NCBI GenBank assembly: GCA_965204745.1
Contig: OZ242010.1
Span: forward strand, 3,264,001 to 3,328,000
Source of the DNA: Candidatus Latescibacterota bacterium
GTDB taxonomy: Bacteria > Latescibacterota > UBA2968
Direction of reading: 5' to 3'
DNA: 64,000 nucleotides
Part shown: positions 15,522-64,000 of the stretch, piece after piece
Layout: each line of letters starts with the position of its first letter
How positions within the stretch are numbered: the stretch's first letter is position 1
Made by a program: the position numbers and the translations under genes
The notes under the pieces: model-generated
Told to the model about the DNA's origin: nothing
The model's database searches: none
What the model saw: only the letters and a program-made list of their open reading frames with translations

Positions 15522-18500
15522 ATGACATCCCATTATCTCCGTTTTCTGTCCCTTCCAACATGGATCGCCGTGTTGGTCATGCCCTTGCTGATCGCCCCCG
15601 CGACAGCGCAGACGACACCACTGGTGAGCAGCGGGGGCGACACGCTCAAGATGTACTGGACGGACACTGTCACGGATAAGATTCAGCGTGCCAACCTCGC
15701 TGGCTCCAATGTCGAAGACCTCATCACCACAGGATTGAGAGATCCAGTTGGCCTCGCGCTGGATGTGGGGGGCGGAAAGATGTACTGGGTGGACTGGGGC
15801 ACGGATAAGATTCAGCGTGCCGACCTCGATGGCTCCAATGTCGAAGACCTCATCACCACAGGATTGACGAATCCAGCTCGCATCGCGCTGGATGTGGGGG
15901 GCGGAAAGATGTACTGGACAGACTTTGGCACGGATAAGATTCAGCGTGCCGACCTCGATGGCTCCAATGTCGAAGACCTCATCACCACAGGATTGAGAGA
16001 TCCAGTTGGCATCGCGCTGGATGTGGGGGGCGGAAAGATGTACTGGACGGACCTTGGCTCTGGCACGAGTAAGATTCAGCGTGCCGACCTCGATGGCTCC
16101 AATGTCGAAGACCTCATCGCCACAGGATTGGGTAATCCATCTGGCCTCGCGCTGGATGTGGGGGGCGGAAAGATGTACTGGACGGACGTTACCACGTCTA
16201 AGATTCAGCGTGCCGACCTTTCTGGCTCCAATGTCGAAGACCTCATCACCACAGGATTGAGTCAGCCATATGGCATCGCGCTGGATGTGGGGGGCGGAAA
16301 GATGTACTGGACGGACCTTGGCACGGCTAAGATTCAGCGTGCCGACCTTTCTGGCTCCAATGTCGAAGACCTCATCACCACAGGATTGAGTAGGCCATCT
16401 GGCCTCGCGCTGGATAAACCGACGGTGACATTGGCACTGTCGCCCTCGTCGATTTCTGAGGCTGGTGGTGTTGCGACGGTGAGCGCGAAGCTGTCGCATC
16501 GGTCGGCGGCGGCGACAACAATCACGGTGCGCCCCGTGACCGGTGCTTACACGGTGGGGTCGGATTCGACGATCACCATCGCGGCGGGGACACGACGAAC
16601 GCGTCGGACACGGTGGTCATCACGGCGGTGAACAACACGACCGATGCACGGTGGGGTCGGATTCGACGATCACCATCGCGGCTGGGGACACGACGAACGC
16701 GTCGGACACGGTGGTCATCACGGCGGTGAACAACACGACCGATGCACCGGACAAGCGCTTAGGCGTGTCTGGCACGGTGGCAGGCGACGATGTGGCATCG
16801 ATGGCTTCCGGGACCCTGACGATCACAGACGATGAAGCCTCGCCGGATGTGACGCTGATGCTGTCGCCCTCGTCCATCTCGGAGGCTGGCGGTGTTTCGA
16901 CGGTGAGCGCGGTGCTGTCGCGTCCGTCGAGTGAGGCGACCACGATCACGGTGCGCCCCTTAGCCAATGCCTACACGGTGGGTCAGGATTCGACGATCAC
17001 CATTGCGGCTGGGGACACGACGAACGCGTCGGACACGGTGGTCATCACGGCGGTGAACAACACGACCGATGCGCCGAACAACGATGTGACCGTGTCCGGT
17101 GTGGCACGCAACGATCAAGGCGTGGGCAGTGTGACCGGTGCGGCTTTGACGCTGGATGACGATGAAGCCTCGCCGGACGTGACGCTGATGCTGTCGCCCA
17201 CGTCGATTTCTGAGGCTGGTGGTGTTGCGACGGTGAGCGCGACGCTCTCGCGTCCGTCGAGTGAGGCGACCACGATCACGGTGCGCCCCTTAGCCAATGC
17301 CTACACGGTGGGTCAGGATTCGACGATTGCCATCGCGGCCGGGCAAACGGCGAACACGTCGGACACGGTGGTGGTCACGGCGGTGGACAACGCCCAATAC
17401 GAGCTTGATCGCGCCGTGACCGTGTCCGGTGTGGCAAGCAACGACCATGGCGTGGGCCGTGTGACCGGTGCGGCTTTGACGCTGGAAAACGATGACGCGT
17501 CCAAGATGTACTGGACAGACGCTGGCACGGATAAGATTCAGCGTGCCAGCCTCAATGGCTCCCAGGTCGAAGACCTCATCACCGCAGAATTGGAGAGTTC
17601 ATGGGGCATCGCGCTGGATGTGGGGGGCGGAAAGATGTACTGGACGGACAGGGACGCGAATAAAATTCAGCGTGCCGATCTAAATGGCTCCAATGTCGAA
17701 GACCTCATCACCACAGGATTGAGTTCGCCACGGGGCATCGCGCTGGATGTGGGGGGCGGAAAGATGTACTGGGTGGACGCCGGCACGGATAAGATTCAGC
17801 GTGCCGACCTCGATGGCTCCAATGTCGAAGACCTCATCGCCACAGGATTGAGTTCGCCACGGGGCATCGCGCTGGATGTGGGGGGCGGAAAGATGTACTG
17901 GACGGACGCCGGCACGGATAAGATTCAGCGTGCCGACCTCGATGGCTCCAATGTCGAAGACCTCATCACCACAGGATTGAGTTCGCCACGGGGCATCGCG
18001 CTGGATGTGGGGGGCGGAAAGATGTACTGGACGGACGATGGCAGGAATAGGATTCAGCGTGCCGACCTCGATGGCTCCAATGTCGAAGACCTCATCACCA
18101 CAGGATTGAGAGATCCAGTTGGCATCGCGCTGGATGTGGGGGGCGGAAAGATGTACTGGACGGACAGGGACGCGAATAAAATTCAGCGTGCCGATCTAAA
18201 TGGCTCCAATGTCGAAGACCTCATCACCACAGGATTGGATAATCCAGTTGGCATCGCGCTGTTTCAACCGACGGTGATTTTGGCACTGTCGCCCACGTCG
18301 ATTTCTGAGGCTGGTGGTGTTTCGACGGTGAGCGCGACGCTCTCGCGTCCGTCGAGTGCGGCGACCACGATCACGGTGCGCCCCGTGGCCAATGCCTACA
18401 CGGTGGGTCAGGATTCGACGATCACCATCGCGGCTGGGGACACGACGAACGCGTCGGACACGGTAGCGATCACGGCGGTGGACAACGGTCAATACGAGGT

Positions 18501-21500
18501 TACTCGCGCCGTGACCGTGTCCGGTGTGGCAAGCAACGATCAAGACGTGGGCAATGTGACCGGTGCGGCTTTGACGCTGGAAGACGATGATGCGCCCAAG
18601 ATGTACTGGATGGACGCTGACACGGATAAGATTCAGCGTGTCAACATTGATGGCTCCTACGTCGAAGACCTCATCACCACAGGATTGGATGGGCCATATA
18701 GCATCGCGCTGGATGTGGGGGGCGGCAAGATGTACTGGACGGACACTACCACGGATAAGATTCAGCGTGCCGACCTCGATGGCTCCAATGTCGAAGACCT
18801 CATCACCACAGGATTGGGTGATCCAAGTGGCATCGCGCTGGATGTGGGACGCGGAAAGATGTACTGGATGGACGCTAGCACGAATAAGATTCAGCGTGCC
18901 GACCTCAATGGCTCCAATGTCGAAGACCTCATCACCGCAGGATTGAGGTATTCAGGTGGCATCGCGCTGGATGTGGGGGGCGGAAAGATGTACTGGACGG
19001 ACAGGGCCGCGGCTAATATTCAGCGTGCCGACCTCGATGGCTCTAATGTCGAAGACCTCATCACCACAGGATTGGATGGGCCATTTGGCATCGCGCTGGA
19101 TGTGGGACGCGGAAAGATGTACTGGACGGACATTGTCACGGATAAGATTCAGCGTGCCGACCTCGATGGCTCCAATGTCGAAGACCTCATCACCACAGGA
19201 TTGGGTAATCCATTTGGCATCGCGCTGGATGTGGGACGCGGAAAGATGTACTGGACGGACAATGTCACGAATAAGATTCAGCGTGCCGACCTCGATGGCT
19301 CCAATGTCGAAGACCTCATCACCACAGGATTGACTACGCCAAATGGCATCGCGCTGGATAAACCGACGGTGACATTGGCACTGTCGCCCACGTCGATTTC
19401 TGAGGCTGGTGGTGTTGCGACGGTGAGCGCGAAGCTGTCGCATCTATCGAGGGATGCGACAACAATCACGGTGCGCCCCGTGACCGGTGCTTACACGGTG
19501 GGGTCGGATTCGACGATCACCATCGCGGCTGGGGACACGACGAACGCGTCGGACACGGTGGTCATCACGGCGGTGAACAACACGACCGATGCACCGGACA
19601 AGCGCTTAGGCGTGTCTGGAACGGTGGCAGGCGACGATGTGGCATCGCTGGCTTCCGGGACCCTGACGATCACAGACGATGAAGCCGCGCCTACCGTGAC
19701 GCTGATGCTGTCGCCCTCGTCCATCTCGGAGGCTGGCGGTGTTTCGACGGTGAGCGCGACGCTCTCGCGTCCGTCGAGTGAGGCGACCACGATCACGGTG
19801 CGCCCGGTGACCGGTGCTTACACAGTGGGTCAGGATTCGACGATTGCCATTGCAGCCGGGCAAACGGCGAACACGTCGGACACGGTGGTGGTCACGGCGG
19901 TGGACAACACACAAGACGAGGTTAATCGCGCCGTGACCGTGTCCGGTGTGGCGCGCAACGCCCAAGGCGCGGGCAGTGTGACCGGGGCGACTTTGACGCT
20001 AACCGATGATGACGCGACGCCGACGCTGAGTATTGCTTCTGCGAGTGTGGATGAGGGCGCCACTGGGGAGACGCCATCCCTTGAGTTCATCGTCTCGTTG
20101 AGCGCGGCGAGTGGGAAGGTAGTGACGGTGGGCTATGCAGACGCGACTAGCGGGACCGCGACTTCGGGCACGGACTACACCGCAATCACTGCCGGCACGC
20201 TGACGTTCGCGGCGGGTGTGACGCGCAATACCATTGCGGTGTCCGTCACCGGTGACAACACCGCCGAGCCGAATGAGACCGTGAGCGTGACGCTGAGCAA
20301 TCCTGTCAATGCGACCTTCACCGGCGGGAGCGCGACCCTCACCAGTAGCGGGACGATCACCGATGATGACACGACGCCGAGGCTGAGTATTAGTTCTCCG
20401 ACTGTGGCCGAGGGGAGCGGTTCCTCATCCCTTGAGTTCATCGTGACGTTGAGTGTAGCCAGTGGTCAGCAAGTCACGGTGGACTATGAGGACGCGGGCA
20501 CCGGTACCGCGACTTCGGGAGATGACTACACCGCAATCACTGCTGGCACGCTGACCTTAGCGGCTGGCGTGACGAGCGATACCCTTGCCGTGGGCGTTCT
20601 CGCCGATGCCCTCGATGAGGAGAATGAGACCGTGGTCGTCGAGTTGAGCAATCCTGTCAATGCGACGATCAACACGGCGACCGGCACCGGAACGATCACC
20701 GATGATGACGACGAGCCGACGTTGAGTATTGCTTCTGCGAGTGTGGCCGAGGGCACCACTGGCGCCACGCCGTCGCTTGAGTTCATCGTGACGTTGAGCG
20801 CGGCAAGTGGTCGGCAAGTGACGGTGGACTATGAAGACGCGGGCACCGGTACCGCGACTTCGGGCACGGACTACACCGCAATCACTGCTGGCACGCTGAC
20901 CTTAGCGGCTGGCGTGACGAGCGATACCCTTGCCGTGACTGTCCTCGGCGATGCCCTTGACGAGGATGATGAGACCGTGATCGTGACGCTGAGCAGTGCG
21001 AGCAATGCGGCGATAAGCACGGCGACCGGCACCGGAACGATCACCGATGATGACGCCCCGCCGACGTTGAGTATTGCTTCTGCGAGTGTGACCGAGGGTG
21101 ACGCTGGGGAGACGCCATCGCTTGAGTTCATCGTCTCGTTGAGCGCGGCGAGTGGGAAGGTAGTGACGGTGGGCTATGCGGACGCGACTAGCGGGACCGC
21201 GACTTCGGACACGGACTACACGGCAATCACTGCTGGCACGCTGACGTTCGCGTCAGGTGTGACGAGAGATACCCTTGCCGTGTCCGTCACCGGTGACGAC
21301 ACCGCTGAGTCGGATGAGACCGTGATCGTGACGCTGAGCAATCCGAGCAATGCGACCCTCAGCGGCGGGGGCACGACCCTCACCGGCACCGGGACGATCA
21401 CCAATGATGACGGCGTGCCGAGGCTGAGTATTAGTTCTCCGACTGTGGCCGAGGGGAGCGGTTCCTCATCCCTTGAGTTCATCGTGATGTTGAGTGTAGC

Positions 21501-22476
21501 CAGTAGTCAGCAAGTCACGGTGGGCTATGAAGACGCGGGCACCGGGACCGCGACTTCGGGAGATGACTACACGGCAATCACTGCCGGCACGCTGACGTTT
21601 GCGGCTGGCGTGACGCGCGATACCCTTGCCGTGACTGTCCTCGCCGATGCCCTCGATGAGGATGATGAGACCGTGATCGTGACGCTGAGCAGTGCGAGCA
21701 ATGCGGCGATAAGCACGGCGACCGGCACCGGAACGATTACCGATGATGATGGCGAGCCGACGGTAACACTGTCGCTATCGGCGTCGACGATTTCGGAGAA
21801 CGGCGGGGTTTCCACGGTGAGCGCGACGCTGTCGCATCCATCGAGCGCGATCACGACGATCACGGTCTCTGCGGCACCTGTGTCCCCTGCAACTGCGAGC
21901 GACTTCACGCTATCGAGTGCAGACACGCTGATCATCGCGGCGAGTGAGACGACGAGCACGGGCACCGTGACGATCACCGCAGTGGACAACGACGACCGGG
22001 CAGGCGATAAGACGGTCACGGTGTCTGCAACCGCAAACAACGCCCAAGGCATCACCGCACCCGAACCCGTGACCCTGACCATTACCGATGACGAACCGAG
22101 TGCCAACTTGGATGTAGATGGCGATGGCCGGGTGAGACTGTTCTCGGATATAATCCTGGTCATTCGATATGTCCTCTTCTTCCGGGAAGAGGCCCTCCTC
22201 AGAGGGAACGTCATCGAGCAACAGGCTACGCGTACGACTGCTCAACAAATTGAACCCTACCTCGACATATTGGTCAATCAGAACATTCTCGATGTGGATG
22301 GCGATGGCGATGTGAGACTGTTCTCGGATATAATCCTGATCATTCGATATGTCCTCTTCTTCCGGAACGAGGCCCTCATCAGAGGGAACGTCATCGAGCA
22401 AAGTGCTACGCGCACGACCGCTCAACAAATTGAACCCTTCATCCGAAGCCTCTATCCCGACTCTCACTTCGAATGA
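15522..22476 (+). pseudogene. Giant secreted protein (3 six-bladed YWTD propellers, Ig-like and Calx-beta repeats, 2 C-terminal dockerin/EF-hand-like repeats), frameshifted by a 97-bp tandem duplication
   Basis: ORFs 15522..16631 and 16543..22476 join into ~2285 aa if 16550-16646 is removed. Signal peptide; 18 MYWxD repeats; ATSGTDYTA..GTLTFAAG and TGTITDDD Calx-beta motifs; LDVDGDG twice. Could be an assembly artefact. Confidence 0.8.
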
Positions 22477-32781: not shown

Positions 32782-32974
32782 GAGAATCTCCTTTGCTAAA
32801 GCCTGCGACTGAATAACACCCCTGCAACACAGGCCATGAATGCCTGTATCAGGGTACAAAATTCCTAAATGGTCGACCGCTTGGGGGACGGGGATTGGGA
32901 CTGACTACTGACTACTGACTACTGACTACTGACTACTGACTACTGACTACTGACTACTGACTACTGACTACTGA

Positions 32975-34122: not shown

Positions 34123-34274
34123 TGACTACTGACTACTGACTACTGACTACTGACTACTGACTACTGACTACTGACTACTGACTACTGACTACTGACTACT
34201 GACTACTGACTACTTGAGCAATGGCGGGGTTGCCTCACCTCTCCCGTCTCCCCTCTTGTATCTTGGAAGTAAGG

Positions 34275-42122: not shown

Positions 42123-42342
42123 AGAGGGGAGAGGGCTTGCGAGGAGGACATGCACAGGGGCCTATCCCTACGGTTGATGGCGACGGGGTGTGCGAAGGAC
42201 ATAGCGGGAGAACGATGAAGCGGCTGTAGGGTTGTGGGGGTAATCCGCGCAATCTGTGTAATCCGTTTAATCCGCGATTCAGACACGGCGGGGACGAGAC
42301 GGGCACGCACGGGTGGTTGGGCAGAGCGGCTGGGAATATCCC

Positions 42343-42372
42343 TTGACATCATTATCAGGCAGGCTGTATATT
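42343..42372 (+). promoter_or_regulatory. Sigma70-type promoter of the giant surface protein
   Basis: TTGACA-N18-TATATT, followed by an AAGGAG RBS and ATG at 42438. Confidence 0.55.
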
Positions 42373-42437
42373 GCTTCTCGTCAAGCCATCCTCTATTCGT
42401 GAGCTGGACACCTACCCCCAACGCAAAGGAGAGAATC

Positions 42438-45400
42438 ATGCATAACCGGATTTTTTCAACAGGCTTGTTGATGACCGCGCTCACAGCGCTGGTCTTTCTG
42501 AGCTATCGGGTCGTTGCCGAACCCGATGCCCAAGGCGGCGCGACGGCTGGGGGATCTTCCCCTTCCGAAAGCCCGTCCTCGAGTGATATGCTCACCACGA
42601 CAAACCGGATCTCGTTTAACGTTCCTACGACTTCCACGGCCGATTTTGATGCCGATGGGATGGTAGGCTTTTCCGACTTCTTGGCGTTTGCAGGGCAGTA
42701 TGGCACGCGACAAGGGGATGGCAGATACCAAGCGAAGTATGATTTGGATAGCGATGGTGCGATAGACTTGCAGGATTTTCTGAGTTTTGCCGGCAGTTAT
42801 GGCAACACAGTACCTCCTCCACCTCCTAGTGGTGGCGGTACGCCCAAGATGTACTGGAGGGACAATGTCACGGATAAGATTCAGCGTGCCAACCTCGATG
42901 GCTCCAATGTCGAAGACCTCATCACCACAGGATTGAGGAATCCACGGGGCATCGCGCTAGATGTGGGACGCGGAAAGATGTACTGGACGGACAGGGACAC
43001 GGATAAGATTCAGCGTGCCAACCTCGATGGCTCCAATGTCGAAGACCTCATCACCACAGGATTGAGGAATCCACGGGGCATCGCGCTGGATGTGGGACGC
43101 GGAAAGATGTACTGGACGGACTGGGACACGGATAAGATTCAGCGTGCCAACCTCGATGGCTCCAATGTCGAAGACCTCATCACCACAGGATTGAGGGGGC
43201 CAGAGGGCATCGCGCTGGATGTGGGACGCGGAAAGATGTACTGGACGGACTATGGCACGGATAAGATTCAGCGTGCCAACCTCGATGGCTCCCAGGTTGA
43301 AGACCTCATCACCACAGGATTGAGCAATCCATCTGGCATCGCGCTAGATATGGGACGCGGAAAGATGTACTGGACGGACTATGGCACGGATAAGATTCAG
43401 CGTGCCAACCTCGATGGCTCCCAGGTTGAAGACCTCATCACCACAGGATTGAGCAATCCATCTAGCATCGCGCTGGATGTGGGACGCGGAAAGATGTACT
43501 GGACGGACTGGGACACGGATAAGATTCAGCGTGCCAACCTCGATGGCTCCCAGGTCGAAGACCTCATCACCACAGGATTGAGGACGCCAGGTGGCATCGC
43601 GCTGGATACTCAGGGAACCGGTAGTGCCGGTAGTGGCAGTGGTGGGGGTAGCAGTGGTCCTGACCTGATCGTTGAATCGCCTTCGGTCAGCGATAGCACC
43701 TTGACGCCTGGGCAATCCTTCACCCTGCACGCCACAGTTCGCAACCGGGGCACGGCTCGGTCAGCCTCGACGACCTTGCGCTACTACCGCTCGTCCGACG
43801 CGACGATCTCCACGAGCGATACAGAAGTGGGCACGGATTCGGTCAGCGGTCTGTCCGCTTCGGGCACGGGTTCGGAATCGATCAGTCTGACTGCTCCGTC
43901 GAGTACCGGCACGTATTACTACGGCGCGTGCGTGGCAAGCGTCAGCGACGAGAGCAACACCGACAACAACTGCTCGGCTGCCGTCGTGCGCGTCACGGTG
44001 AGTAGCGGTGGCGGTACGCCCAAGATGTACTGGACAGACTGGGGCACGGATAAGATTCAGTGTGCCAACTTGGATGGCTCCAATGTCGAAGACCTCATCA
44101 CCACAGGATTGACTACGCCAGTTGGCATCGTGCTGGATGTGGTACGCGGAAAGATGTACTGGACAGACTGGGGCACGGATAAGATTCAGCGTGCCAACTT
44201 GAATGGCTCCTATGTCGAAGACCTCATCACCACAGGATTGAGGGGGCCACGGGGCATCGCGCTAGATATGGGACGCGGAAAGATGTACTGGACGGACTCT
44301 GGCACGGATAAGATTCAGCGTGCCAACCTCGATGGCTCCAATGTCGAAGACCTCATCACCACAGGATTGAGTTATCCATATGGCATCGCGCTAGATGTGG
44401 GACGCGGAAAGATGTACTGGACGGACAGGGAAACGGATAAGATTCAGCGTGCCAACTTGGATGGCTCCAATGTCGAAGACCTCATCACCACAGGATTGAG
44501 CAATCCATCTGGCATCGCGCTGGATGTGGGACGCGGAAAGATGTACTGGACGGACAATGGCACGGATAAGATTCAGCGTGCCAACCTCGATGGCTCCAAT
44601 GTCGAAGACCTCATCACCACAGGATTGAGGAATCCACAGGGCCTCGCGCTGGATGTGGGCCGCGGAAAGATGTACTGGACGGACCCTGACACGGAGAAGA
44701 TTCAGCGTGCCAACCTCGATGGCTCCAATGTCGAAGACCTCATCACCACAGGATTGAGGAATCCACAGGGCCTCGCGCTGGATACTCAGGGAACCGGTAG
44801 TGCCGGTAGTGGCAGTGGTGGGGGTAGCAGTGGTCCTGACCTGATCGTTGAATCGCCTTCGGTCAGCGATAGCACCTTGACGCCTGGGCAATCCTTCACC
44901 CTGCACGCCACAGTTCGCAACCGGGGCACGGCTCGGTCAGCCTCGACGACCTTGCGCTACTACCGCTCGTCCGACGCGACGATCTCCACGAGCGATACAG
45001 AAGTGGGCACAGATTCGGTCAGCGGTCTGTCCGCTTCGGGCACGGGTTCGGAATCGATCAGTCTGACTGCTCCGTCGAGTACCGGCACGTATTACTACGG
45101 CGCGTGCGTGGCAAGCGTCAGCGACGAGAGCAACACCGACAACAACTGCTCGGCTGCCGTCGTGCGCGTCACGGTGAGTAGCGGTGGCGGTGGCGGTACG
45201 CCCAAGATGTACTGGGTGGACCCTGGCACGGATAAGATTCAATATGCCAACTTGGATGGCTCCAATGTCGAAGACCTCATCACCACAGGATTGAGGGGGC
45301 CATTGGGCATCGCGCTGGATGTGGGACGCGGAAAGATGTACTGGACGGACTGGCGCACGAATAAGATTCAGCGTGCCAACTTGGATGGCTCCAATGTCGA

Positions 45401-48400
45401 AGACCTCATCACCACAGGATTGAGTTCGCCAGAAGGCATCGCGCTAGATGGACGCGGAAAGATGTACTGGACGGACTCTGGCACGGATAAGATTCAGCGT
45501 GCCAACTTGAATGGCTCCTATGTCGAAGACCTCATCACCACAGGATTGAGTTATCCACAGGGCATCGCGCTAGATATGGGACGCGGAAAGATGTACTGGA
45601 CGGACCCTGTCACGGATAAGATTCAGCGTGCCAACCTCGATGGCTCCAATGTCGAAGACCTCATCACCACAGGATTGAGGTCGGCATCAGGCATCGCGCT
45701 AGATGTGGGACGCGGAAAGATGTACTGGACGGACTCTGGCACGCCTGGGTACCAGGGCACGAAGAAGATTCAGCGTGCCAACTTGGATGGCTCCAATGTC
45801 GAAGACCTCATCACCACAGGATTGTGGGGGCCAGAGGGCATCGCGCTGGATGTGGGCCGCGGAAAGATGTACTGGACGGACCCTGGCACGGATAAGATTC
45901 AGCGTGCCAACCTCGATGGCTCCAATGTCGAAGACCTCATCACCACAGGATTGAGTGTGCCATTGGGCATCGCGCTGGATACTCAGGGAACCGGTAGTGC
46001 CGGTAGCGGCAGTGGTGGGGGTAGCAGTGGTCCTGACCTGATCGTTGAATCGCCTTCGGTCAGCGATAGCACCTTGACGCCTGGGCCATCCTTCACCTTA
46101 CAAGTCACCGTTCGCAATCGGGGCACGGGGCAATCAGCCTCGACGACCTTGCGCTACTACCGCTCGTCCGACGCGACGATCTCCACGAGCGATACAGAAG
46201 TGGGCACAGATTCGGTCAGCGGTCTGTCCGCTTCGGGCACGGGTTCGGAATCGATCAGTCTAACTGCTCCGTCGAGTACCGGCACGTATTACTACGGCGC
46301 GTGCGTGGCAAGCGTCAGCGGCGAGAGCAACACCGACAACAACTGCTCGGCTGCCGTGCGCGTCACGGTCAGTGGTAGCGGTAGCGGCGGTGGCGGCACA
46401 CCTACTAAGATGTACTGGATATCCGGTACCAAGATTCAGCGGGCCAACCTCGATGGGTCCGAGGTCGAAGACCTCATCACCACAGGATTGAGGAATCCAC
46501 GGGGCATCGCGCTGGATGTGGGACGCGGAAAGATGTACTGGACGGACTGGGACACGGATAAGATTCAGCGTGCCAACCTCGATGGCTCCAATGTCGAAGA
46601 CCTCATCACCACAGGATTGAGGGGGCCAGAGGGCATCGCGCTGGATGTGGGACGCGGAAAGATGTACTGGACAGAGAACCTCGGAGCCACCGACAGGATT
46701 CGGAGGGCGAACCTTGATGGGTCCGAGGTCGAAGTCGTCGTGAAACCAGGAGGCGGAGGTCCGGTCGCGCTGGGGCTAGGAAAGATATACTGGGCGACCC
46801 GTAGTAGTATTCAGCGGGCCAATCTCGATGGCTCCGAGGTCGAAGACCTCATCACCACAGGATTGAGGGGGTCACGGGGCATCGCGCTGGATGTGGGGCG
46901 AGGAAAGATATACTGGAAGGACAATTCTTACCCGTATAAGATTCAGCGGGCCAACCTCGATGGGTCCGAGGTTGAAGACCTCATCACAGGATCGGGGTAT
47001 GGAGGAGGCATCGCGCTGGATGTGGGGCGAGGAAAGATATACTGGACGAACGGCAGAAGTAAGATTCAGCGGGCCAACCTCGATGGGTCCGAGGTCGAAG
47101 ACCTCATCACAGGATTGGATGCTCCAAACGGCATCGCGCTGGACGGTCTTGCTGTTAGCGAGGGTGCTGGTCTCGACCTGATCGTTGGCTCGCCTGAGGT
47201 CAGCGACAGCCTACTGGCGCCTGGGCAATCCTTCTCCCTGCGCGCAAGAGTTCGCAACAGCAGCCCGGTATGGTCCGCCGCAACGACCTTGCGCTACTAC
47301 CGCTCAACGGACGCGACAATCTCCACCAGCGATACACCCGTCGGCACGAACGAGGTGGGCGAGCTGTCGGCTTGGGGCACGAGTTTGGAAGCGATCGATC
47401 TGACGGCCCCGTCAAATACCGGCACGTATTACTACGGCGCGTGTGTCGAAAGCGTCAGCGGCGAGAGCAAGACCAATAACAACTGCTCGGATGCCGTGCG
47501 CGTTACGGTGAGTAGCGGTGGTGGTGGCGGTGGCGGCACACCTAATAAGATGTACTGGATATCCGGTACCAAGATTCAGCGGGCCAACCTCGATGGGTCC
47601 TATATCGAAGACCTCATCACCGGAGGGGAGTGGCCAAGAGGCCTCGCGCTGGATGTGGGGCGAGGAAAGATATACTGGACGATCTCTAGTAGTATTCAGC
47701 GGGCCAACCTCAATGGGTCCGAGGTCGAAGACCTCATCACAGGATCGGGGTATAAAGGAGGCCTCGCGCTGGATGTGGGGCGAGGAAAGATATACTGGAA
47801 GGACAATTCTTACCCGTATAAGATTCAGCGGGCCAACCTCGATGGGTCCGAGGTTGAAGACCTCATCACAGGATCGGGGTCTGAAGGAGGCCTCGCGCTG
47901 GATGTGGGGCTAGGAAAGATGTACTGGACGACCCGTAGTAGGATTCAGCGGGCCAATCTCGATGGCTCCGAGGTCGAAGACCTCATCACCAGATTGGCCG
48001 ACCTAGGAGGCATCGCGCTGGATGTGGGGCGAGGAAAGATGTACTGGAAGGGCAATTCTTACCCGTATAAGATTCAGCGGGCCAACCTCGATGGGTCCGA
48101 GGTCGAAGACCTCATCACAGGATCGGGGTCTGAAGGAGGCCTCGCGCTGGATGTGGGGCTAGGAAAGATGTACTGGACGACCCGTAGTAGGATTCAGCGG
48201 GCCAATCTCGATGGCTCCGAGGTCGAAGACCTCATCACCAGATTGGCCGACCTAGGAGGCATCGCGCTGGCACTGGACGATCTTGCTGTCAGCGAGGCCA
48301 CTGGTTTCGACTTAGTCGTTGAATCGCCTTCGGTCAGCGACAGCCTACTGACGCCTGGGCAATCCTTCTCCCTGCGCGCAAGAGTTCGCAACAGCAGCAC

Positions 48401-49832
48401 GATACGGTCCGCCGCAACGACCTTGCGCTACTACCGCTCAACGGACGCGACAATCTCCACCAGCGATACACCCGTCGGCACGGACGAGGTCGGCGCGCTG
48501 TCGGCACGGGGCATGAGCCGGGAATCGATCACTTTGACTGCCCCGTCAAATACCGGCACGTATTACTACGGCGCGTGTGTCGAAAGCGTCAGCGGCGAGA
48601 GCAATACCAATAACAACTGCTCAACCAGCGTACGCATCACGGTGAGTAGGTTCGACCTGATCGTTGAATCGCCTTCGGTCAGCGACAGCCTACTGGCGTT
48701 CGGGCAATCCTTCACCCTGCGCGCCACAGTTCGCAACCGTAGCACGATACGGTCCGCCGCAACGACCTTGCGCTACTATCGCTCAACGGACGCGACAATC
48801 TCCACCAGCGATACATCCGTCGGCACGGACGCGGTGGGCGAGTTGTCAGCTTCGGGCACGAGTTCGGAATCGATCACTTTGACTGCCCCGTCAAATACCG
48901 GCACGTATTACTACGGCGCGTGTGTCGAAAGCGTCAGCGGCGAGAGCAATACCAATAACAACTGCTCAACCAGCATACGCGTCATGGTGCGCGCTGGTTT
49001 CGACTTGGTCGTTGGCTCGCCTGAGGTCAGCGACAGCCTACTGACGTTAGGGCAATCCTTCACCCTGAGCACCACAGTTCGCAACCGCAGCACGATACGG
49101 TCCGCCGCAACGACCTTGCGCTACTACCGCTCAACGGACGCGAGGATCGACACCAGCGATACATCCGTCGGCACGGACGCGGTGGGCGAGTTGTCAGCTT
49201 CGGGCACGAGTTCGGAATCGATCACTCTGACTCCGTTAAATATGGGAGACTACTACTATGGGGCCTGTGTCGAAGAAGCTACGTGGGAGAGCGATTCCCA
49301 GAACAACTGCTCGGATGGAGTGCACGTCTCCGTGGGATTGGTCATAGCCCCGGGCGCGAGAAAACAATACATAGCGAAGTTTCCTGCCAATTTTTCTTAT
49401 CAGCCTTCTTTTGAGACTATCTCGTATCGCGTCGTGTCGTCAGCCGTGGACTCTGGCTTATTAGGTGTGTCAAATGTTGATGTTAGCATAACTTGGCGCG
49501 ACCAGTTTGGAGTTGTTCGCTCAGTAACTGAAGTGAGATTTACTTACAATCTGTCCGTACGCTCATCAACACCCTTAAATACTACGCTACGGGCTAGAAT
49601 GACTTATAAGATAGTCTCGGCGATAGTCGGGAGCGAGGAGTTCACCTCCGGTGCTGTGGCGACTTATACTGTTCCATTAACGATTTTTGTTAGGGACAGC
49701 GGTAGTGCCAAGTTGACCGCCGGAGACGCGGAGTCGGCGACGCCAGTCCAAGAGCAAGACCGTTTGCCCCCGTCATCAGCACGGATCAACCTAAAACGCT
49801 CTATCGAGCAACCTAGAAATCCCTCACCATAA
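42438..49832 (+). CDS. Giant secreted protein: dockerin/EF-hand-like domain, 5 six-bladed YWTD propellers, 7 CARDB-like Ig domains, unique C-terminus
   Basis: Signal peptide; ADFDADGMVGFSDFLAFA; 30 (M/I)YW repeats in blocks of 6; DL.VESPSVSDS...YYYGACV...NNCS modules. Confidence 0.9.
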   Translation: MHNRIFSTGLLMTALTALVFLSYRVVAEPDAQGGATAGGSSPSESPSSSDMLTTTNRISFNVPTTSTADFDADGMVGFSDFLAFAGQYGTRQGDGRYQAKYDLDSDGAIDLQDFLSFAGSYGNTVPPPPPSGGGTPKMYWRDNVTDKIQRANLDGSNVEDLITTGLRNPRGIALDVGRGKMYWTDRDTDKIQRANLDGSNVEDLITTGLRNPRGIALDVGRGKMYWTDWDTDKIQRANLDGSNVEDLITTGLRGPEGIALDVGRGKMYWTDYGTDKIQRANLDGSQVEDLITTGLSNPSGIALDMGRGKMYWTDYGTDKIQRANLDGSQVEDLITTGLSNPSSIALDVGRGKMYWTDWDTDKIQRANLDGSQVEDLITTGLRTPGGIALDTQGTGSAGSGSGGGSSGPDLIVESPSVSDSTLTPGQSFTLHATVRNRGTARSASTTLRYYRSSDATISTSDTEVGTDSVSGLSASGTGSESISLTAPSSTGTYYYGACVASVSDESNTDNNCSAAVVRVTVSSGGGTPKMYWTDWGTDKIQCANLDGSNVEDLITTGLTTPVGIVLDVVRGKMYWTDWGTDKIQRANLNGSYVEDLITTGLRGPRGIALDMGRGKMYWTDSGTDKIQRANLDGSNVEDLITTGLSYPYGIALDVGRGKMYWTDRETDKIQRANLDGSNVEDLITTGLSNPSGIALDVGRGKMYWTDNGTDKIQRANLDGSNVEDLITTGLRNPQGLALDVGRGKMYWTDPDTEKIQRANLDGSNVEDLITTGLRNPQGLALDTQGTGSAGSGSGGGSSGPDLIVESPSVSDSTLTPGQSFTLHATVRNRGTARSASTTLRYYRSSDATISTSDTEVGTDSVSGLSASGTGSESISLTAPSSTGTYYYGACVASVSDESNTDNNCSAAVVRVTVSSGGGGGTPKMYWVDPGTDKIQYANLDGSNVEDLITTGLRGPLGIALDVGRGKMYWTDWRTNKIQRANLDGSNVEDLITTGLSSPEGIALDGRGKMYWTDSGTDKIQRANLNGSYVEDLITTGLSYPQGIALDMGRGKMYWTDPVTDKIQRANLDGSNVEDLITTGLRSASGIALDVGRGKMYWTDSGTPGYQGTKKIQRANLDGSNVEDLITTGLWGPEGIALDVGRGKMYWTDPGTDKIQRANLDGSNVEDLITTGLSVPLGIALDTQGTGSAGSGSGGGSSGPDLIVESPSVSDSTLTPGPSFTLQVTVRNRGTGQSASTTLRYYRSSDATISTSDTEVGTDSVSGLSASGTGSESISLTAPSSTGTYYYGACVASVSGESNTDNNCSAAVRVTVSGSGSGGGGTPTKMYWISGTKIQRANLDGSEVEDLITTGLRNPRGIALDVGRGKMYWTDWDTDKIQRANLDGSNVEDLITTGLRGPEGIALDVGRGKMYWTENLGATDRIRRANLDGSEVEVVVKPGGGGPVALGLGKIYWATRSSIQRANLDGSEVEDLITTGLRGSRGIALDVGRGKIYWKDNSYPYKIQRANLDGSEVEDLITGSGYGGGIALDVGRGKIYWTNGRSKIQRANLDGSEVEDLITGLDAPNGIALDGLAVSEGAGLDLIVGSPEVSDSLLAPGQSFSLRARVRNSSPVWSAATTLRYYRSTDATISTSDTPVGTNEVGELSAWGTSLEAIDLTAPSNTGTYYYGACVESVSGESKTNNNCSDAVRVTVSSGGGGGGGTPNKMYWISGTKIQRANLDGSYIEDLITGGEWPRGLALDVGRGKIYWTISSSIQRANLNGSEVEDLITGSGYKGGLALDVGRGKIYWKDNSYPYKIQRANLDGSEVEDLITGSGSEGGLALDVGLGKMYWTTRSRIQRANLDGSEVEDLITRLADLGGIALDVGRGKMYWKGNSYPYKIQRANLDGSEVEDLITGSGSEGGLALDVGLGKMYWTTRSRIQRANLDGSEVEDLITRLADLGGIALALDDLAVSEATGFDLVVESPSVSDSLLTPGQSFSLRARVRNSSTIRSAATTLRYYRSTDATISTSDTPVGTDEVGALSARGMSRESITLTAPSNTGTYYYGACVESVSGESNTNNNCSTSVRITVSRFDLIVESPSVSDSLLAFGQSFTLRATVRNRSTIRSAATTLRYYRSTDATISTSDTSVGTDAVGELSASGTSSESITLTAPSNTGTYYYGACVESVSGESNTNNNCSTSIRVMVRAGFDLVVGSPEVSDSLLTLGQSFTLSTTVRNRSTIRSAATTLRYYRSTDARIDTSDTSVGTDAVGELSASGTSSESITLTPLNMGDYYYGACVEEATWESDSQNNCSDGVHVSVGLVIAPGARKQYIAKFPANFSYQPSFETISYRVVSSAVDSGLLGVSNVDVSITWRDQFGVVRSVTEVRFTYNLSVRSSTPLNTTLRARMTYKIVSAIVGSEEFTSGAVATYTVPLTIFVRDSGSAKLTAGDAESATPVQEQDRLPPSSARINLKRSIEQPRNPSP

Positions 49833-50429: not shown

Positions 50430-51467
50430 ATGGCAGAATACGATACGATTCCCAAGCAGTTGATGCACCTCTACCCGCAAGACCTCATCCGCTTGGCACT
50501 CGGACGCGAGGAGGTCGAAATTGAAGTTGAAGAAATCCTCGATACCGAACTCCCCAAGGTGGAAACGCGCCTGGTCGATAGCCTCCTTCGCGTGCGGATC
50601 GATGGCGAGGAAGCCTTGATCCACATCGAATTTCAAACCGCGGATAGCGCGAATATGGCTCGTCGCATGGCTTCCTATATCATCCGTCTCATCGAGCAGT
50701 ATGACTTGCCGGTCTATTCCTTTGTCATCTATCTACGTCCCAATGCCGGGCGGAGCGATAAAGGATTTTTCCGCCAAGATCATGCGGACTTCCCCGTGCT
50801 GGTGCGCTACAAGGTGATTCGGTTGAGCGAGTTGGATGGGCGCGGCATTCTTGAAGGTGACCAGGCCGGCTTGCTTCCTTTCGCGCCGTTGATGAAACCG
50901 CCTGTGGGGATGGATTCCGAGGACTGGTTGCGTGCGTGTGTTCGCAAGGGCGATTCGGTTTCGTTGGATCAGGCAGACAAGGCGAATTATTTGGGTAGCT
51001 TGGCGGTCTTGAGTGGGTTGGCTTATGATCCTGCCACCATCAACCGAATTTTTTCCCAGGAGGGTTTTATGGACGCGATTATGCGTGAGTCATCGTTTGC
51101 CCAGTACCTCGAGGAGCAGTTCAAGGAACAGTTTCTTGAGCAGGGAATCGAGCAGGGAATCGAGCAGGGAATCGAGCAGGGAATCGAGCAGGGAATCGAG
51201 CAGGGAATCGAGCAGGGAATCGAGCAGGGAATCGAGCAGGGAATCGAGCAGGGAATCGAGCAGGGAATCGAGCGAGGAGTCAGAGAACGAGCGGTTGAAG
51301 ACATCCTCGACGTGTTGGAGATTCGCTTTGATCCGGCCGTTGCCGGTCAGTTCGCCGGTCATATTGCGGTTATCGACGATTTGCAACGGCTCAAACGGTT
51401 GCATCGTGTAGCGGTGCAAGCGGATGACCTGGCGGCCTTTCAGCGCGTGTTGAATGCGGAGGCCTAA
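50430..51467 (+). CDS. Rpn/YhgA-like PD-(D/E)XK nuclease family protein
   Basis: YD...K, VDSL, IHIEFQT, M.RRM.SY, (EQGI)11 tail; AGGAGG RBS. Confidence 0.88.
   Translation: MAEYDTIPKQLMHLYPQDLIRLALGREEVEIEVEEILDTELPKVETRLVDSLLRVRIDGEEALIHIEFQTADSANMARRMASYIIRLIEQYDLPVYSFVIYLRPNAGRSDKGFFRQDHADFPVLVRYKVIRLSELDGRGILEGDQAGLLPFAPLMKPPVGMDSEDWLRACVRKGDSVSLDQADKANYLGSLAVLSGLAYDPATINRIFSQEGFMDAIMRESSFAQYLEEQFKEQFLEQGIEQGIEQGIEQGIEQGIEQGIEQGIEQGIEQGIEQGIEQGIERGVRERAVEDILDVLEIRFDPAVAGQFAGHIAVIDDLQRLKRLHRVAVQADDLAAFQRVLNAEA
51138..51269 (+). repeat. Perfect 12-bp coding VNTR (GAGCAGGGAATC)11
   Basis: Counted directly; encodes (EQGI)11. Confidence 0.95.
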
Positions 51468-57882: not shown

Positions 57883-58959
57883 TAGGACTTACGCCAGGGT
57901 CATTGGTATCGCCGGTGTTTTGAGTTGTTGTCTCAAATAGTCCTCCCATAAGCCATGTTTGACTTGAGAGATGGTTTGTCCGGTCTGATGGGCGACTTGG
58001 GTCAGTCGTCCCCAAACGAGAAAGGCACACGCAATGTGGTTTCGCACAATGCGTGCCAATCGGCATTGACACTTTTCAAGCCCCGTTACCTGTTTTGCTT
58101 CCCGGTGAACTTGCTCAATCTTCCAACGCAAGTGGCACACCTCTTGTGCCACCGACGGGTCGGTTTGCGTCAAGTCGTTGGTTACGATATACGCCGTGCG
58201 TCCCGTAGGAGATGCAACCCGGAATACGTTCACCTTATGGTTTTTGGGGAACCCTCTGAGTTTCATGCGTTTTCCTGTGGCCTGTTCGCGTTTTGTCCAA
58301 GTTAAGGCATCGACCCGTTGATAGGGGTTTTCACCTGCCGAATCGTCCACGAGGCGATTCTTTTTAATAGGACAGGAATAGGTCTTTTGCAAGTGCTCAA
58401 TGTGAAGCATGACCGCTTTGGTGGCATACCAAGTATCCATCACGACCCGATCAAAAGGCAGCTTTTTGTGATAGACCAAGAGTGACAACATCTCTTTGAC
58501 GGGGTCTAACTTGGTTTTTCCGTCCCCTTCTGGGTCGTAAATGCGAGAGTCAATCAACCAAAACGGATCGGTAACCGGATTGACAGACACACATGTCACC
58601 ACACCGATCCCATTGATGACCCCCTTCGCATTGCCACTGTATTGCCGACGCACGAGGGCCATCTTTTTCGCATAGCGCTTGTCTTGGACCGTATCATCAA
58701 AGAGAACCACGCCCTTTGCGGTCGACGTGAGGTGGGGTTTGACGTTTTTCCAGATCTCACGCGGCGAGACGCGATCCCCACTCAGCGTGCGGTTGAGCAT
58801 ATCATGCGTGAACTGGTCGCTGTGATCTGCGAAATGAGTCAGGGTATAGTTGTGCGGACTACTAAGCAATACTGGCAGTAATCCAGGCGCGTTGGTTTCG
58901 CCATACAGACCTCCAATGTGAGGATGGGGGGCGTCCCGTTCTTTTTTGCGTAAGTCCTA
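57883..58959 (-). mobile_element. IS701-family element, copy 1, transposase frameshifted near the N-terminus
   Basis: TIRs TAGGACTTACGC / GCGTAAGTCCTA; 6-bp DR TTAAGA; 1-bp deletion at ~58869 relative to copy 2. Confidence 0.88.
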
Positions 58960-61311: not shown

Positions 61312-64000
61312 ATGGCGAAACGAGCGAGAACGCCCAAATCCGTCGAAACCCTCACGCACGGCGATGCGACGCGCAAGAATATTCCCACCGCCGAGTATCA
61401 ACCCGTGATGCGGGAAGAGGAGCAAACCCCGATTCGAGTCGCCTATCAGCGGCGCAACCGCGACCTCGATCCGCAACTCGTCTGGCGCGGCAAGGACGAG
61501 CAGGATTGGTCCGATTTGGTCGTTCAAGCCCCGCCGATCTTCATCCAAGAGAAGGTGCATCCCAAGGTCGTGATCGACGACCTGATGCGCCAATGCGCGG
61601 AGACAGCCACCACAGCACAGGGGTTCCAGCCCGACTTGTTCGCCGATTTCAACGGCCTGCCCGACCCAAGCGCGGCGACCGAGTTCTATCAGCACGACGC
61701 CAACTGGTCAAACCGCATGATCCTCGGCGACAGCCTGCAAGTGATGGCATCCTTGGCCGAGCGCGAGGGCCTGCGCGGTCAAGTGCAGTGCATTTACATC
61801 GACCCGCCCTACGGCATCAAGTTCAATTCCAATTTCCTACCGGCAACACCCAGCCGCGAGGTGCGAGATGGCAAGCGCGAGCACATCACGCGAGAGCCAG
61901 AGCAGATCAAGGCGTATCGGGATACGTGGCGCGACGGCATCCATTCCTACCTGACCTACCTCCGCGACCGCCTGACCGTAGCACGCGACTTGCTGACCGA
62001 GAGCGGGTCATTGTTCTTTCAGATCGGAGACGAAAATGTCCATCGCGTCAGGGCGTTGATGGACGAGATATTTGGGGATGAGAATTTTGTCGGGGAGATT
62101 ATTTTCAAAACCCGTAGCACTTCTACCAGCAAAAATCTGTCTGCATTGAACGATTACATCATCTGGTATTGTAGAGATATTAATGCTCTAAAATTCCGTC
62201 AATTTTACGTGCCGAAAAGTGCTGACAGGGCGCGTTTCAGTTTTGTCGATATTGATGGCGAAGTTTTCAGGGCGAGTAAAAATGCCGGGAGCGTTAAAAT
62301 ATTTTCAAGTAGTAGCCTGTTTTCAACAAGCGGCGGCGACGCCTCCCGGATTCCCTTTGAGTTCCGTGGCAAAGAATATACCCCGGCAACCTCTCGCGGA
62401 TGGCGCTGCTCACTTGATGGACTATTACGCCTTACCTATGCAAGCCGTATATTTAACCAAGGTTAGGACTTACGCCAGGGTCATTGGTATCGCCGGTGTT
62501 TTGAGTTGTTGTCTCAAATAATCCTCCCATAAGCCATGTTTGACTTGATAGATGGTTTGTCCAGTCTGATAGGCGACTTGGGTCAGTCGTCCCCAAACGA
62601 GAAAGGCACACGCGATGTGGTTTCGCACAATGCGTGCCAATCGGCATTGACACTTTTCAAGCCCCGTTACCTGTTTTGCTTCCCGGTGAACTTGCTCAAT
62701 CTTCCAACGCAAGTGGCACACCGCTTGTGCCACTGACGGGTCGGTTTGAGTCAAGTCGTTGGTTACGATATACGCCGTGCGTCTCGTCGCAGACGCGACC
62801 CGGAATACGTTCACCTTGTGGTTTTTAGGGAACCCTCTGAGTTTCATGCGTTTTCCTGTGGCCTGTTCGCGTTTTGTCCAAGTTAAGGCATCGACCCGTT
62901 GATAGGGGTTTTCACCTGACGAATCGTCCACGAGGCGATTCTTTTTGATAGGACAGTAATAGGTCTTTTGCAAGTGCTCAATGTGAAGCATGACCGCTTT
63001 GGTGGCATACCAAGTATCCATCACCACTCGCTCAAAAGGCAGTTTTTTGTGATAGACCAAGAGTGACAACATCTCTTTGACGTGGTCTAACTTGGTTTTT
63101 CCATCCCCTTGCGGATCGTAAATGCGATAGTCAATCAGCCAAAACCGATCTTGAATCGGATTGACATACACACACGTCACCACACCGATCCCCGAGATGA
63201 CCCCCTTCGCATTGCCACTGTATTGCCGACGCACGAGAGCCATCTTTTTGGCATAGCGCTTATCTAAGACCGTGTCATCAAAGAGAATTACGCCCTTTGC
63301 GGTCGACGTGAGGTGGGGTTTGACGTTTTTCCAGATCACACGCGGCGAGACGCGATCCCCACCCAGATAGCGGTTGAGCATATCATGCGTGAACCGGTCG
63401 CTGTGATCTGCGAAATGAGTCAGGGTATAATTGAGCGGACTGCTAAGCAGATACTGGCAGTAATCCAAGCGCGTTGGTTTCGCCATACAGACCTCCAAAG
63501 TGAGGATGGGGGTTCGATCCTGTTCTTTTTTGCGTAAGTCCTACAAGGTAATTCTATCCGCTATAAATACTTTCACGACGATTTCCCATTCGTCGAAGGC
63601 GGGAATCTATGGATTGATCAAATGTCCGAGCAAAACAAATCTTATGTGGTGCAAACATCTCCAAGACCCATTGAACGTTGCGTCCTCATGACCACCGACC
63701 CTGGCGACCTCGTCCTCGATCCCACCTGCGGGGCTGGCACAACCGCGTATGTTGCCGAGCAGTGGGGCAGGCGGTGGATCACCATCGACACCAGCCGAGT
63801 TGCCCTCGCGTTGGCGCGTGCGCGCATCATGGGGGCGCGTTATCCCTACTACTTGCTCGCGGACAGCGCGGAGGGGCAGCGCAAGGAAGCGGAAATCAGC
63901 CGCACCGCGCCATCGGAAATGCCCGCGCATGGCGACGTCCGCCAAGGCTTTGTGTATGAGCGCGTGCCGCACATCACCTTGCGCGACATCGCCAACAACG
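61312..64000 (+). pseudogene. mod: Type III DNA methyltransferase (Mod), interrupted by IS701 and continuing past the window end
   Basis: IDPPY motif. Removing the IS and one DR restores the frame ...FNQG|NSIRYK...DLVLDPTCGAGTT. Confidence 0.92.
62464..63543 (-). mobile_element. IS701-family element, copy 2, with intact ORF 62470..63498
   Basis: Same TIRs; 6-bp DR CAAGGT at 62458-63 and 63544-49; DDT..DK, DTWY, RWKIE motifs. Confidence 0.92.

Follow-up and report, generated by a model that had tools for sequence, protein, structure and literature searches.

Two giant plus-strand genes, designated A and B, in a 64,000-nucleotide window of the Candidatus Latescibacterota genome GCA_965204745.1 (contig OZ242010.1, positions 3,264,001 to 3,328,000; "the window" is this whole stretch, and coordinates without a genome or locus label refer to it) carry series of six-bladed YWTD (low-density lipoprotein (LDL) receptor class B) β-propellers. 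The chromosome from which it is taken (G000) is a single closed contig of 5.48 Mb. The blades are nearly identical in DNA, synonymous positions included, except at five codons in two short slots where nonsynonymous divergence (dN) lies far above synonymous divergence (dS), mosaic tracts occur among them, and no diversity-generating retroelement (DGR) was detected by its reverse transcriptase. On balance, the probable explanation is an exchange of blades, both inside genes and from gene to gene, together with strong diversifying selection on the slot loops. We infer that the slots owe their variation to selection and not to a mutator, and that the proteins are displayed at the surface and bind varied ligands of host, phage or particle origin.

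Blade repeats and their variable positions

A blade-start motif occurs 48 times on the plus strand of the window and never on the minus strand, and the occurrences fall into eight groups of exactly six, in agreement with an earlier note on this DNA that had described eight propellers with blades always in sixes. The propellers are the following.

15648..16427, plus strand: propeller P1, six blades, recognized by the blade motif
17503..18276, plus strand: propeller P2, six blades, recognized by the blade motif
18598..19371, plus strand: propeller P3, six blades, of which 2, 4 and 5 have a gene-A-type RADL body with a gene-B-type VGRG tail
42846..43619, plus strand: propeller P4, six blades, used for the structure model
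44022..44795, plus strand: propeller P5, recognized by the blade motif
45204..45992, plus strand: propeller P6, with a chimeric blade 3 (45459-45587)
46407..47162, plus strand: propeller P7, of a diverged short-blade type, containing a tract (46464-46672) identical to 43038-43246 in P4
47547..48293, plus strand: propeller P8, of a diverged type made of duplicated two-blade units (47856-48021 equals 48105-48270)

Blades are exactly 129 nt long in 33/36 cases in P1 to P6 and belong to shorter types of 120-129 nt in P7 and P8, where the two-blade unit of P8 is duplicated at a 249-nt period with 166 nt exact. The blades of P7 and P8 constitute a second blade type with shorter B-C loops and glycine-rich D-A loops. 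Matches to the Pfam family Ldl_recept_b (PF00058) were obtained with E values of 2.6e-227 for gene B and 3.8e-103 and 1.2e-60 for the two open reading frames (ORFs) of gene A (735.6, 338.2 and 202.1 bits, with a cut-off of 21), and the same family is matched 123 times in the source genome and 0 times in 14 control genomes. Genome-wide, the motif was counted 144 times; nine hits are singletons, and the other 135 are blades that group into 24 clusters, 19 of which have six hits. At least 14 genes in the genome, megabases apart, bear propellers, and the blade scaffold noted at the outset as common to the genes at 15.6-19.4 kb and 42.8-48.3 kb extends to the clusters genome-wide. Elsewhere in the chromosome, a 131-nt blade with two extra bases (G000 4563921-4564051) splits another YWTD gene into frames of 516 and 1394 aa, and the blades at G000 4306235 and 3233313 have stop codons right behind the propeller.

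Variation by codon was assessed in the 33 canonical blades of the window and in a genome-wide set of 91 canonical, stop-free blades of 129 nt drawn from the 135, taking codons 7 and 8, just after YWTD, as slot 1, codons 31, 32 and 34 (TTGL-xxPx) as slot 2, and codons 1-39 minus the slots as the scaffold. For the window blades, the proportions of synonymous (pS) and nonsynonymous (pN) differences in the scaffold are 0.068 and 0.046, many scaffold codons being identical in 33/33 blades, and per-codon pN in the slots is 0.73 (codon 7), 0.40 (8), 0.45 (31), 0.66 (32) and 0.75 (34) around a conserved Pro33. Both the near-identity of the blades at synonymous sites and the concentration of change behind YWTD and TTGL, as originally claimed, are borne out, and variation along the blade is not uniform. 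Corresponding values for the 91 blades are 0.090 (pS) and 0.050 (pN) in the scaffold and a pN of 0.628 in the five slot codons; codons 5, 9, 10 and 33 are of intermediate variability, and many scaffold codons, rare synonyms included, are identical in 91/91 blades. Codon preference does not explain this invariance, because the most used synonym is present at only 14/36 scaffold codons and CGT, ACA, GGA and CCA are fixed though each makes up 9-12% of its synonym family in long ORFs, and codon bias was accordingly rejected as the cause of scaffold identity.

In the slot codons, the first two positions are near random, or saturated, and the third is conserved: among four-fold-degenerate codons the dominant third base is C in 58/58 at codon 8, T in 29/34 at codon 7, G in 43/48 at codon 32, T in 32/45 at codon 34 and T in 20/24 at codon 31. 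This conservation implies that slots and scaffold have a young ancestry in common and that the amino-acid-changing substitutions of the slots are saturated, and it points to new substitutions under selection rather than to a reshuffling of alleles. Where two blades agree over the whole 87-nt scaffold (87 pairs), their slots still differ by 5.4/18 and 5.1/12 nt, as in all pairs, and the correlation of slot with scaffold distance is weak (Mantel r 0.125, p 0.012). R, S, T, G, Y and W are frequent among the slot residues, whereas Lys and His occur at 1/455 each and Cys and Met are absent. Singletons account for 34/50 alleles of slot 1 and 62/74 of slot 2, and the combination is unique in 86/91 blades, so that the repertoire is not made by recombining a few alleles; among the 91 blades, recurrent alleles of slot 1 and slot 2 never form a quartet in which all four combinations are present. 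Recurrence of slot alleles in different combinations, as proposed in the earlier note, is therefore limited to a minority. Its further proposal, that the scaffold is homogenized while a binding surface is shuffled, largely holds for the homogenization, the single face and the mosaicism, the diversity itself deriving mainly from new selected substitutions and not from reshuffling, and the receptor repertoire that it deduced is a putative functional label.

The AlphaFold2 (AF2) model of P4 has a predicted local distance difference test (pLDDT) value of 96.3, a predicted template modelling score (pTM) of 0.92 and 24 strands, which DSSP assigns to residues 2-6, 11-15, 23-26 and 33-39 of each 43-residue unit. 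Slot 1 (residues 7-8, up to 10) is located in the B-C loop of this model, between the YWTD strand and the next, and slot 2 (31, 32 and 34) in the D-A loop, entering the innermost strand. From the topology of a four-stranded up-and-down sheet, given by the DSSP strands, the two loops are predicted to be co-facial, with the invariant NLDGS and VGRG loops on the opposite face. By the usual convention, the face with the B-C and D-A loops is the 'top' face of the propeller. Foldseek aligns the P4 model with the propellers of LRP4, LRP6, LDLR, LRP2 and nidogen at template modelling (TM) scores of 0.88-0.92, root-mean-square deviations of 1.4-2.2 and 28-36% identity; the blades are genuine six-bladed YWTD β-propellers. 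Ligands of LRP6 are described as docking on the top of its propeller and at its centre (PMC7585440). Since the slot loops are predicted to be co-facial, a propeller would expose some 30 residues, each chosen individually, on the face to which ligands bind in animal YWTD propellers.

Proposed exchange among blades and competing explanations

A tract of 209 nt, covering the end of blade 2, blade 3 and the start of blade 4 in P4, is exactly repeated in P7, and its flanks at the same offset are 45% and 24% identical. Blade 3 of P6 differs from blade 2 of P5 at eight positions, of which seven are in codons 7, 31, 32 and 34 and one is the third base of codon 5, and from blade 3 of P5 at seven positions, of which five are scaffold markers. 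By these differences it is a chimera in which the scaffold markers are those of P5 blade 2 and the slots those of P5 blade 3, a combination that cannot arise by descent alone. For 49/91 blades, the nearest neighbour comes from another propeller and from another position within it. A simple duplication tree, the outcome that the earlier note had set against its proposal, is ruled out by the 209-nt tract in the diverged P7 and by the chimeric blade, and the nearest neighbours agree with this. Scaffold pS is 0.065 within propellers, 0.076 within genes and 0.092 between genes, as compared with 0.225 between loci (102 pairs) for the CARDB domains that adjoin the propellers in the same genes. CARDB 1 and CARDB 2 of gene B show one difference in 419 bases, whereas their adjoining propellers differ throughout the slots.

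The pattern was followed into other genomes and loci, among them a sister species (G016), G018, L014, L018 and L026. The amino-acid scaffold KMYWTD-xx-TDKIQRANLDGS-x-VEDL-[IV]-T-x-GL-xxPx-G-[IL]-ALD with variable slots (pN 0.45-0.68, L014 excepted) extends across seven phylum labels, the metagenome-assembled genomes (MAGs) that carry it being labelled Latescibacterota, Poribacteria, Gemmatimonadota, Acidobacteriota, Dehalococcoidia, Pirellulales and Saprospiraceae. A DNA-identical scaffold with variable slots recurs in three of the genomes and loci compared, each with its own nucleotide version.

G016: scaffold pS within 0.084; slot pN within 0.61
L018 (Latescibacterota): scaffold pS within 0.064 and to G000 0.249; slot pN within 0.62
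L026 (Bryobacterales): scaffold pS within 0.065 and to G000 0.488; slot pN within 0.56

Blades group by species in L018 and L026, and for G016, where the figures refer to 28 unique canonical blades at 5/7 loci out of 46 motif hits, scaffold pS is 0.084 within the genome and 0.106 to G000. In a MAG labelled Acidobacteriota (L014:3001-3759), the blades are nearly identical with their slots included (YG...RGPS repeated, slot pN 0.125), and on this evidence the propeller looks like a newborn or freshly homogenized one.

Under the mechanism proposed, a sponge-associated Latescibacterota bacterium would make giant proteins, secreted or displayed, on which the propellers follow one another as heads, and the ~135 blades in at least 14 genes would make up one evolving pool. 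Gene conversion or unequal recombination would copy blade DNA from blade to blade, between propellers and between genes, and blades and propellers would also be duplicated. This copying would keep the scaffold nearly identical, synonymous sites included, and the five positions of each blade would have diverged to saturation through amino-acid-changing substitutions under strong diversifying selection. The genome would thus encode ~24 different putative binding surfaces on one scaffold.

Several observations weigh against this account. Four-gamete failures at 211/496 pairs of scaffold sites (77/190 in a stricter set) are of an order that recurrent mutation could yield in a star-like family of ~90 lineages, and a signal akin to that of the pairwise homoplasy index (PHI), at p 0.0005, is lost (p 0.26-0.74) without codons 40-43 and same-codon pairs. 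The recombination statistics being weak, it is a small number of clear tracts and the comparison with CARDB that carry the case for conversion. The co-facial position of the slots is based on strand topology and not on model coordinates, gene A contains a frameshift (see below), and most of the other genomes are near synonymous saturation, with within-genome scaffold pS of 0.42-0.62, so that slots there could merely lack constraint. Lastly, scaffold pS between G000 and G016 is only 0.08-0.13, compared with 0.09 and 0.084 within each.

Divergence of these two genomes outside the blades is given by pyruvate dehydrogenase (PDH) E1, with a pS of 0.31 over 901 codons, and by other compared genes with 85-91% DNA identity, and the non-blade parts of the YWTD genes of G016 are 75-87% identical to, and not syntenic with, their best G000 counterparts. 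G018 is nearer to G000 by E1 (pS 0.26) yet has a single propeller, with six motif hits and a blade pS of 0.40 (5 blades). Because neutral concerted evolution does not lower divergence between species, the scaffold sharing of G000 and G016 would reflect either movement of blade DNA between lineages and its spread by conversion, or constraint on synonymous sites. A more far-reaching idea, which we regard as rather unlikely, is that the blades form a shared cassette pool kept identical in DNA, either because homology is selected for exchange or because blade DNA moves between co-resident symbiont species, with two species separated by an E1 pS of 0.31 on one scaffold at a net divergence of ~0.02. 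If this were true, the pool would be a germline-encoded and fast-evolving bacterial recognition repertoire, analogous to the repeats of fungal NOD-like receptors (NLRs) or to lamprey variable lymphocyte receptors (VLRs), and sponge symbionts of several phyla would use it against variable ligands of hosts, phages or particles.

The best surviving alternative to exchange combined with diversifying selection is that blades, propellers and genes were recently duplicated in a burst that started from a single ancestral blade, without ongoing conversion, the scaffold being identical simply because it is young and the loops having come under positive selection afterwards. Propellers do arise continually by amplification of single blades (PMC9218822), and the L014 propeller, with blades near-identical down to the slots, is what a newborn one would look like. 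CARDB 1 and CARDB 2, one base apart, would fit a burst as well, as would the lineage-specific expansion seen in ~135 blades in G000 and 46 and six motif hits in G016 and G018. The blade scaffold (pS 0.09) is, however, 2.5 times more uniform than the CARDB domains of the same genes (0.225), and the P7 tract and the P6 chimera need transfer rather than descent. The many blades closest to another position in another propeller, and the occurrence of one scaffold in genes of differing architecture, likewise speak against a burst, which is on the whole unlikely.

That these are ordinary repeat proteins with a scaffold under purifying selection and simply unconstrained loops, in which diversifying selection is unnecessary, is considered highly unlikely. 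Neutral loops in an old family would produce the approximate equality of slot pN (0.52-0.68) and scaffold pS (0.42-0.62) that is seen in most relatives, and conservation of the amino-acid scaffold across MAGs labelled as seven phyla is in keeping with such a history, but in G000, G016, L018 and L026 slot pN (0.56-0.63) amounts to 6-9 times scaffold pS (0.064-0.09). Slot pN is also ~3 times as high as pS in the CARDB domains of these genes, and third positions in the slot codons are conserved, whereas neutral loops cannot outrun synonymous sites.

Still less probable is a dedicated mutator, either a DGR or another targeted mechanism, that writes the slots. The NNC/NNT-like slot codons (NNC at codon 8 in 86/91 blades) recall adenine mutagenesis of AAC/AAT templates, and replacement by template copying would homogenize the scaffold too, yet free synonymous adenines of the scaffold are invariant (ACA at codon 28 and GGA at codon 29 in 90/91 blades each, CCA at codon 33 in 88/91) and slot codons mix T- and G-ending forms, GGC accounting for 42/91 at codon 8. 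RVT_1 is matched only once in the closed genome, by a reverse transcriptase (RT)/endonuclease of the retron Ec67 family (708 bits). A DGR was rejected on the grounds of this retron-type RT and the invariant adenines, a template repeat not having been searched for. The retron fusion gene is located at G000 5010819-5011442 (L093:1369-3105) and is preceded by a 131-aa ORF without a family match. Finally, collapse or mis-joining of near-identical repeats into apparent mosaics is scarcely credible: the repeats are long and similar, Pereira and Lupas (PMC9218822) urge caution over repetitive propellers and the public contigs aligned with gene B are short and joined spuriously at many points, but the chromosome is one closed 5.48-Mb contig, the frame is intact over 2532 codons, every propeller of the window has exactly six blades, the pattern is repeated in several independent assemblies, and mis-joining cannot generate slot sequences.

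Gene architecture and neighbouring sequences

The remaining features of genes A and B and the transposase gene next to gene B are listed below.

15522..16631, plus strand: gene A, ORF 1, with a signal-peptide-like N-terminal segment, P1 and the start of an immunoglobulin (Ig)-like spacer, ending in a frameshift
16543..22476, plus strand: gene A, ORF 2 (1977 aa), with Ig-like spacers, P2, P3, five Calx-beta domains and a borderline C-terminal dockerin-type repeat pair
16550..16646, plus strand: 97-nt tandem duplication disrupting the gene A frame, in the Ig-like spacer after P1
40848..41930, minus strand: IS110-family transposase (DEDD_Tnp_IS110 and Transposase_20), directly upstream of gene B
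42234..49832, plus strand: gene B, open frame of 2532 aa from GTG, with five propeller-plus-CARDB modules, more CARDB and a 200-aa tail
43620..44021, plus strand: linker and CARDB 1 (43597-44015 equals 44773-45191, in CARDB 2, bar one mismatch)
44796..45203, plus strand: linker and CARDB 2, from Pfam and repeat comparison
45993..46406, plus strand: linker and CARDB 3, 94% identical to CARDB 1
48294..49330, plus strand: three tandem CARDB domains at a 345-nt period

Translation of gene B likely starts at an ATG near 42438, which is followed by a signal-peptide-like segment, a weak EF-hand/dockerin-like pair and the five propeller-plus-CARDB modules; the signal peptides of both genes were assigned by eye. 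In the Pfam search, CARDB was identified six times in gene B and Calx-beta five times in gene A. The Dockerin_1 match at the C-terminus of gene A is borderline (22.9 bits, equal to the cut-off), that at the N-terminus of gene B is weak (19.1 bits, under the cut-off), and the last 200 aa of gene B have no family match in this search. Neither EGF nor Ldl_recept_a domains were found in genes A and B at a Pfam E value of 0.001 or lower, and their proteins are for this reason not members of the LDL-receptor family; from their domain content they look like secreted or displayed multi-domain proteins and not like LDLR-type receptors.

At the break in gene A, Tandem Repeats Finder (TRF) reports a period of 98 nt present twice at 99% identity, and alignment with the intact paralogous spacer after P3 gives 97 extra bases. 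As a result of the frameshift, the downstream ORF of 1977 aa has no signal peptide, and gene A, still with intact, scaffold-identical blades, may be a very recent pseudogene. Gene B is absent from the corresponding place in G018 and G016, the two closest genomes examined. Gene B is matched exactly in runs labelled as sponge metagenome (in run X3 over 129 nt and 153 nt, with 0 differences), which shows only that the organism or a close strain is present there; the public runs compared, with no RNA run among those listed for the gene, were four sets of short assembled contigs, in which hundreds of pieces fit two places and joints are many.

The CARDB-like domains are a very large family of their own, with ~80 DNA matches to CARDB 1 genome-wide and long tandem arrays at 70-76% identity (for example, G000 3234054-3239619 and 4300016-4305557). 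Just 3′ of gene B, a 345-aa ORF (50430-51467) unmatched in Pfam is a member of a large family present in many copies, which accounts for dozens of the 78 DNA matches in G016 and the 29 in G018, and may be a mobile or repeated gene. Perfect heptamer arrays are present at 32900-32974 (ACTGACT, 10.7 copies) and 34123-34214 (TGACTAC, 13.1 copies). The segment 53928-63498, in which GC content falls to 0.50-0.54, is a possible mobile or defence island that encodes a ResIII-type helicase (1007 aa), an SDH-type ClpP-like protease, an N6/N4 DNA methylase and two paralogous DDE transposases (57889-58869 and 62470-63498).

Significance and comparison with known systems

What eukaryote-like repeat proteins do in sponge symbionts is an open question, and this locus makes the case of the LDL-receptor class B repeats testable. 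Five positions per blade can be named as putative specificity determinants, and ~24 natural variants on one stable scaffold could be screened against sponge extracts, glycans and phages; a near-consensus, stable-looking blade with defined variable positions may also be regarded as a natural binder scaffold. The combination known in fungal immune receptors, in which propeller repeats evolve in concert while one face is under diversifying selection, would be extended to secreted proteins of bacteria in several phyla, and the synonymous identity across species is a separate puzzle for multigene-family theory. The system is of interest because it is large, recurs in symbionts of several phyla, shares its scaffold between species in a puzzling way and is open to direct experiment.

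Two well-known classes of variable repeat or codon invite comparison. The repeats of transcription activator-like (TAL) effectors are nearly identical in DNA and vary in two codons (the repeat-variable di-residues), with a few recurring alleles that read DNA bases, and form a solenoid; the small recurrent set of alleles and the solenoid distinguish them from the YWTD blades, in which alleles are mostly unique and the fold is a propeller. DGRs place NNC/NNT-type codons on a fixed scaffold, need an RT and a template and mutate adenines, and neither the type of RT nor adenine-restricted variation was found here.

The animal YWTD propellers (LRP4, LRP6, LDLR, LRP2 and nidogen) share with those of genes A and B the family PF00058, the six blades and the structural similarity given above. 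They differ in that blades within a propeller are diverged, rather than near-identical, and in that an EGF module comes next in what are membrane receptors, as opposed to the CARDB, Ig-like and Calx-beta neighbours without EGF found here. Recently amplified symmetric propellers (Pereira and Lupas, 2022; PMC9218822) are alike in the near-identity of blade DNA, independent amplification in relatives and frequent frameshifts. The focus of that paper is the origin of propellers and not face-specific hypervariability in a multigene pool, and a term search of its text gave no mention of YWTD, LDL, hypervariable or sponge.

LDL-receptor class B repeats have been recorded in Poribacteria, with virtually nothing known of them (Kamke et al., 2014; PMC3909097). 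These agree with the present blades in the Pfam domain in tandem, the sponge-associated hosts and the predicted extracellular location, although the paper only records presence, without analysis at the level of DNA or of single sites. Single eukaryote-like proteins (ankyrin, TPR, NHL and cadherin) alter sponge-bacterium interactions, according to a study that did not include the YWTD class (2026, PMC13747020). Literature searches, which did not cover subscription journals, returned no description of the pattern for bacterial YWTD proteins.

The closest likeness is to the WD40 repeats of the HNWD family in Podospora anserina (het-d/het-e), which undergo concerted evolution within and between ~10 genes and in which four positions per repeat, on the interaction face, are under positive diversifying selection (Paoletti, Saupe and Clave, 2007; PMC1805685). 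Common to both systems are β-propeller repeats near-identical in DNA within and between genes, exchange of repeat units, selected positions grouped on a face, a large total number of repeats as a supply of mutations and pseudogene members that keep intact repeats, as gene A does. The two differ in that the fungal repeats are WD40 units of a eukaryotic cytoplasmic NLR death switch and vary in number, whereas those described here are YWTD units, six per propeller, in bacterial secreted multi-domain proteins. Repeat-induced point mutation (RIP) has been proposed as an extra mutator for HNWD, and HNWD repeats cluster by species, while two species share one pool in the present case. By analogy, the YWTD repertoire is best read as a putative bacterial, extracellular counterpart of the fungal HNWD WD40 repertoires.

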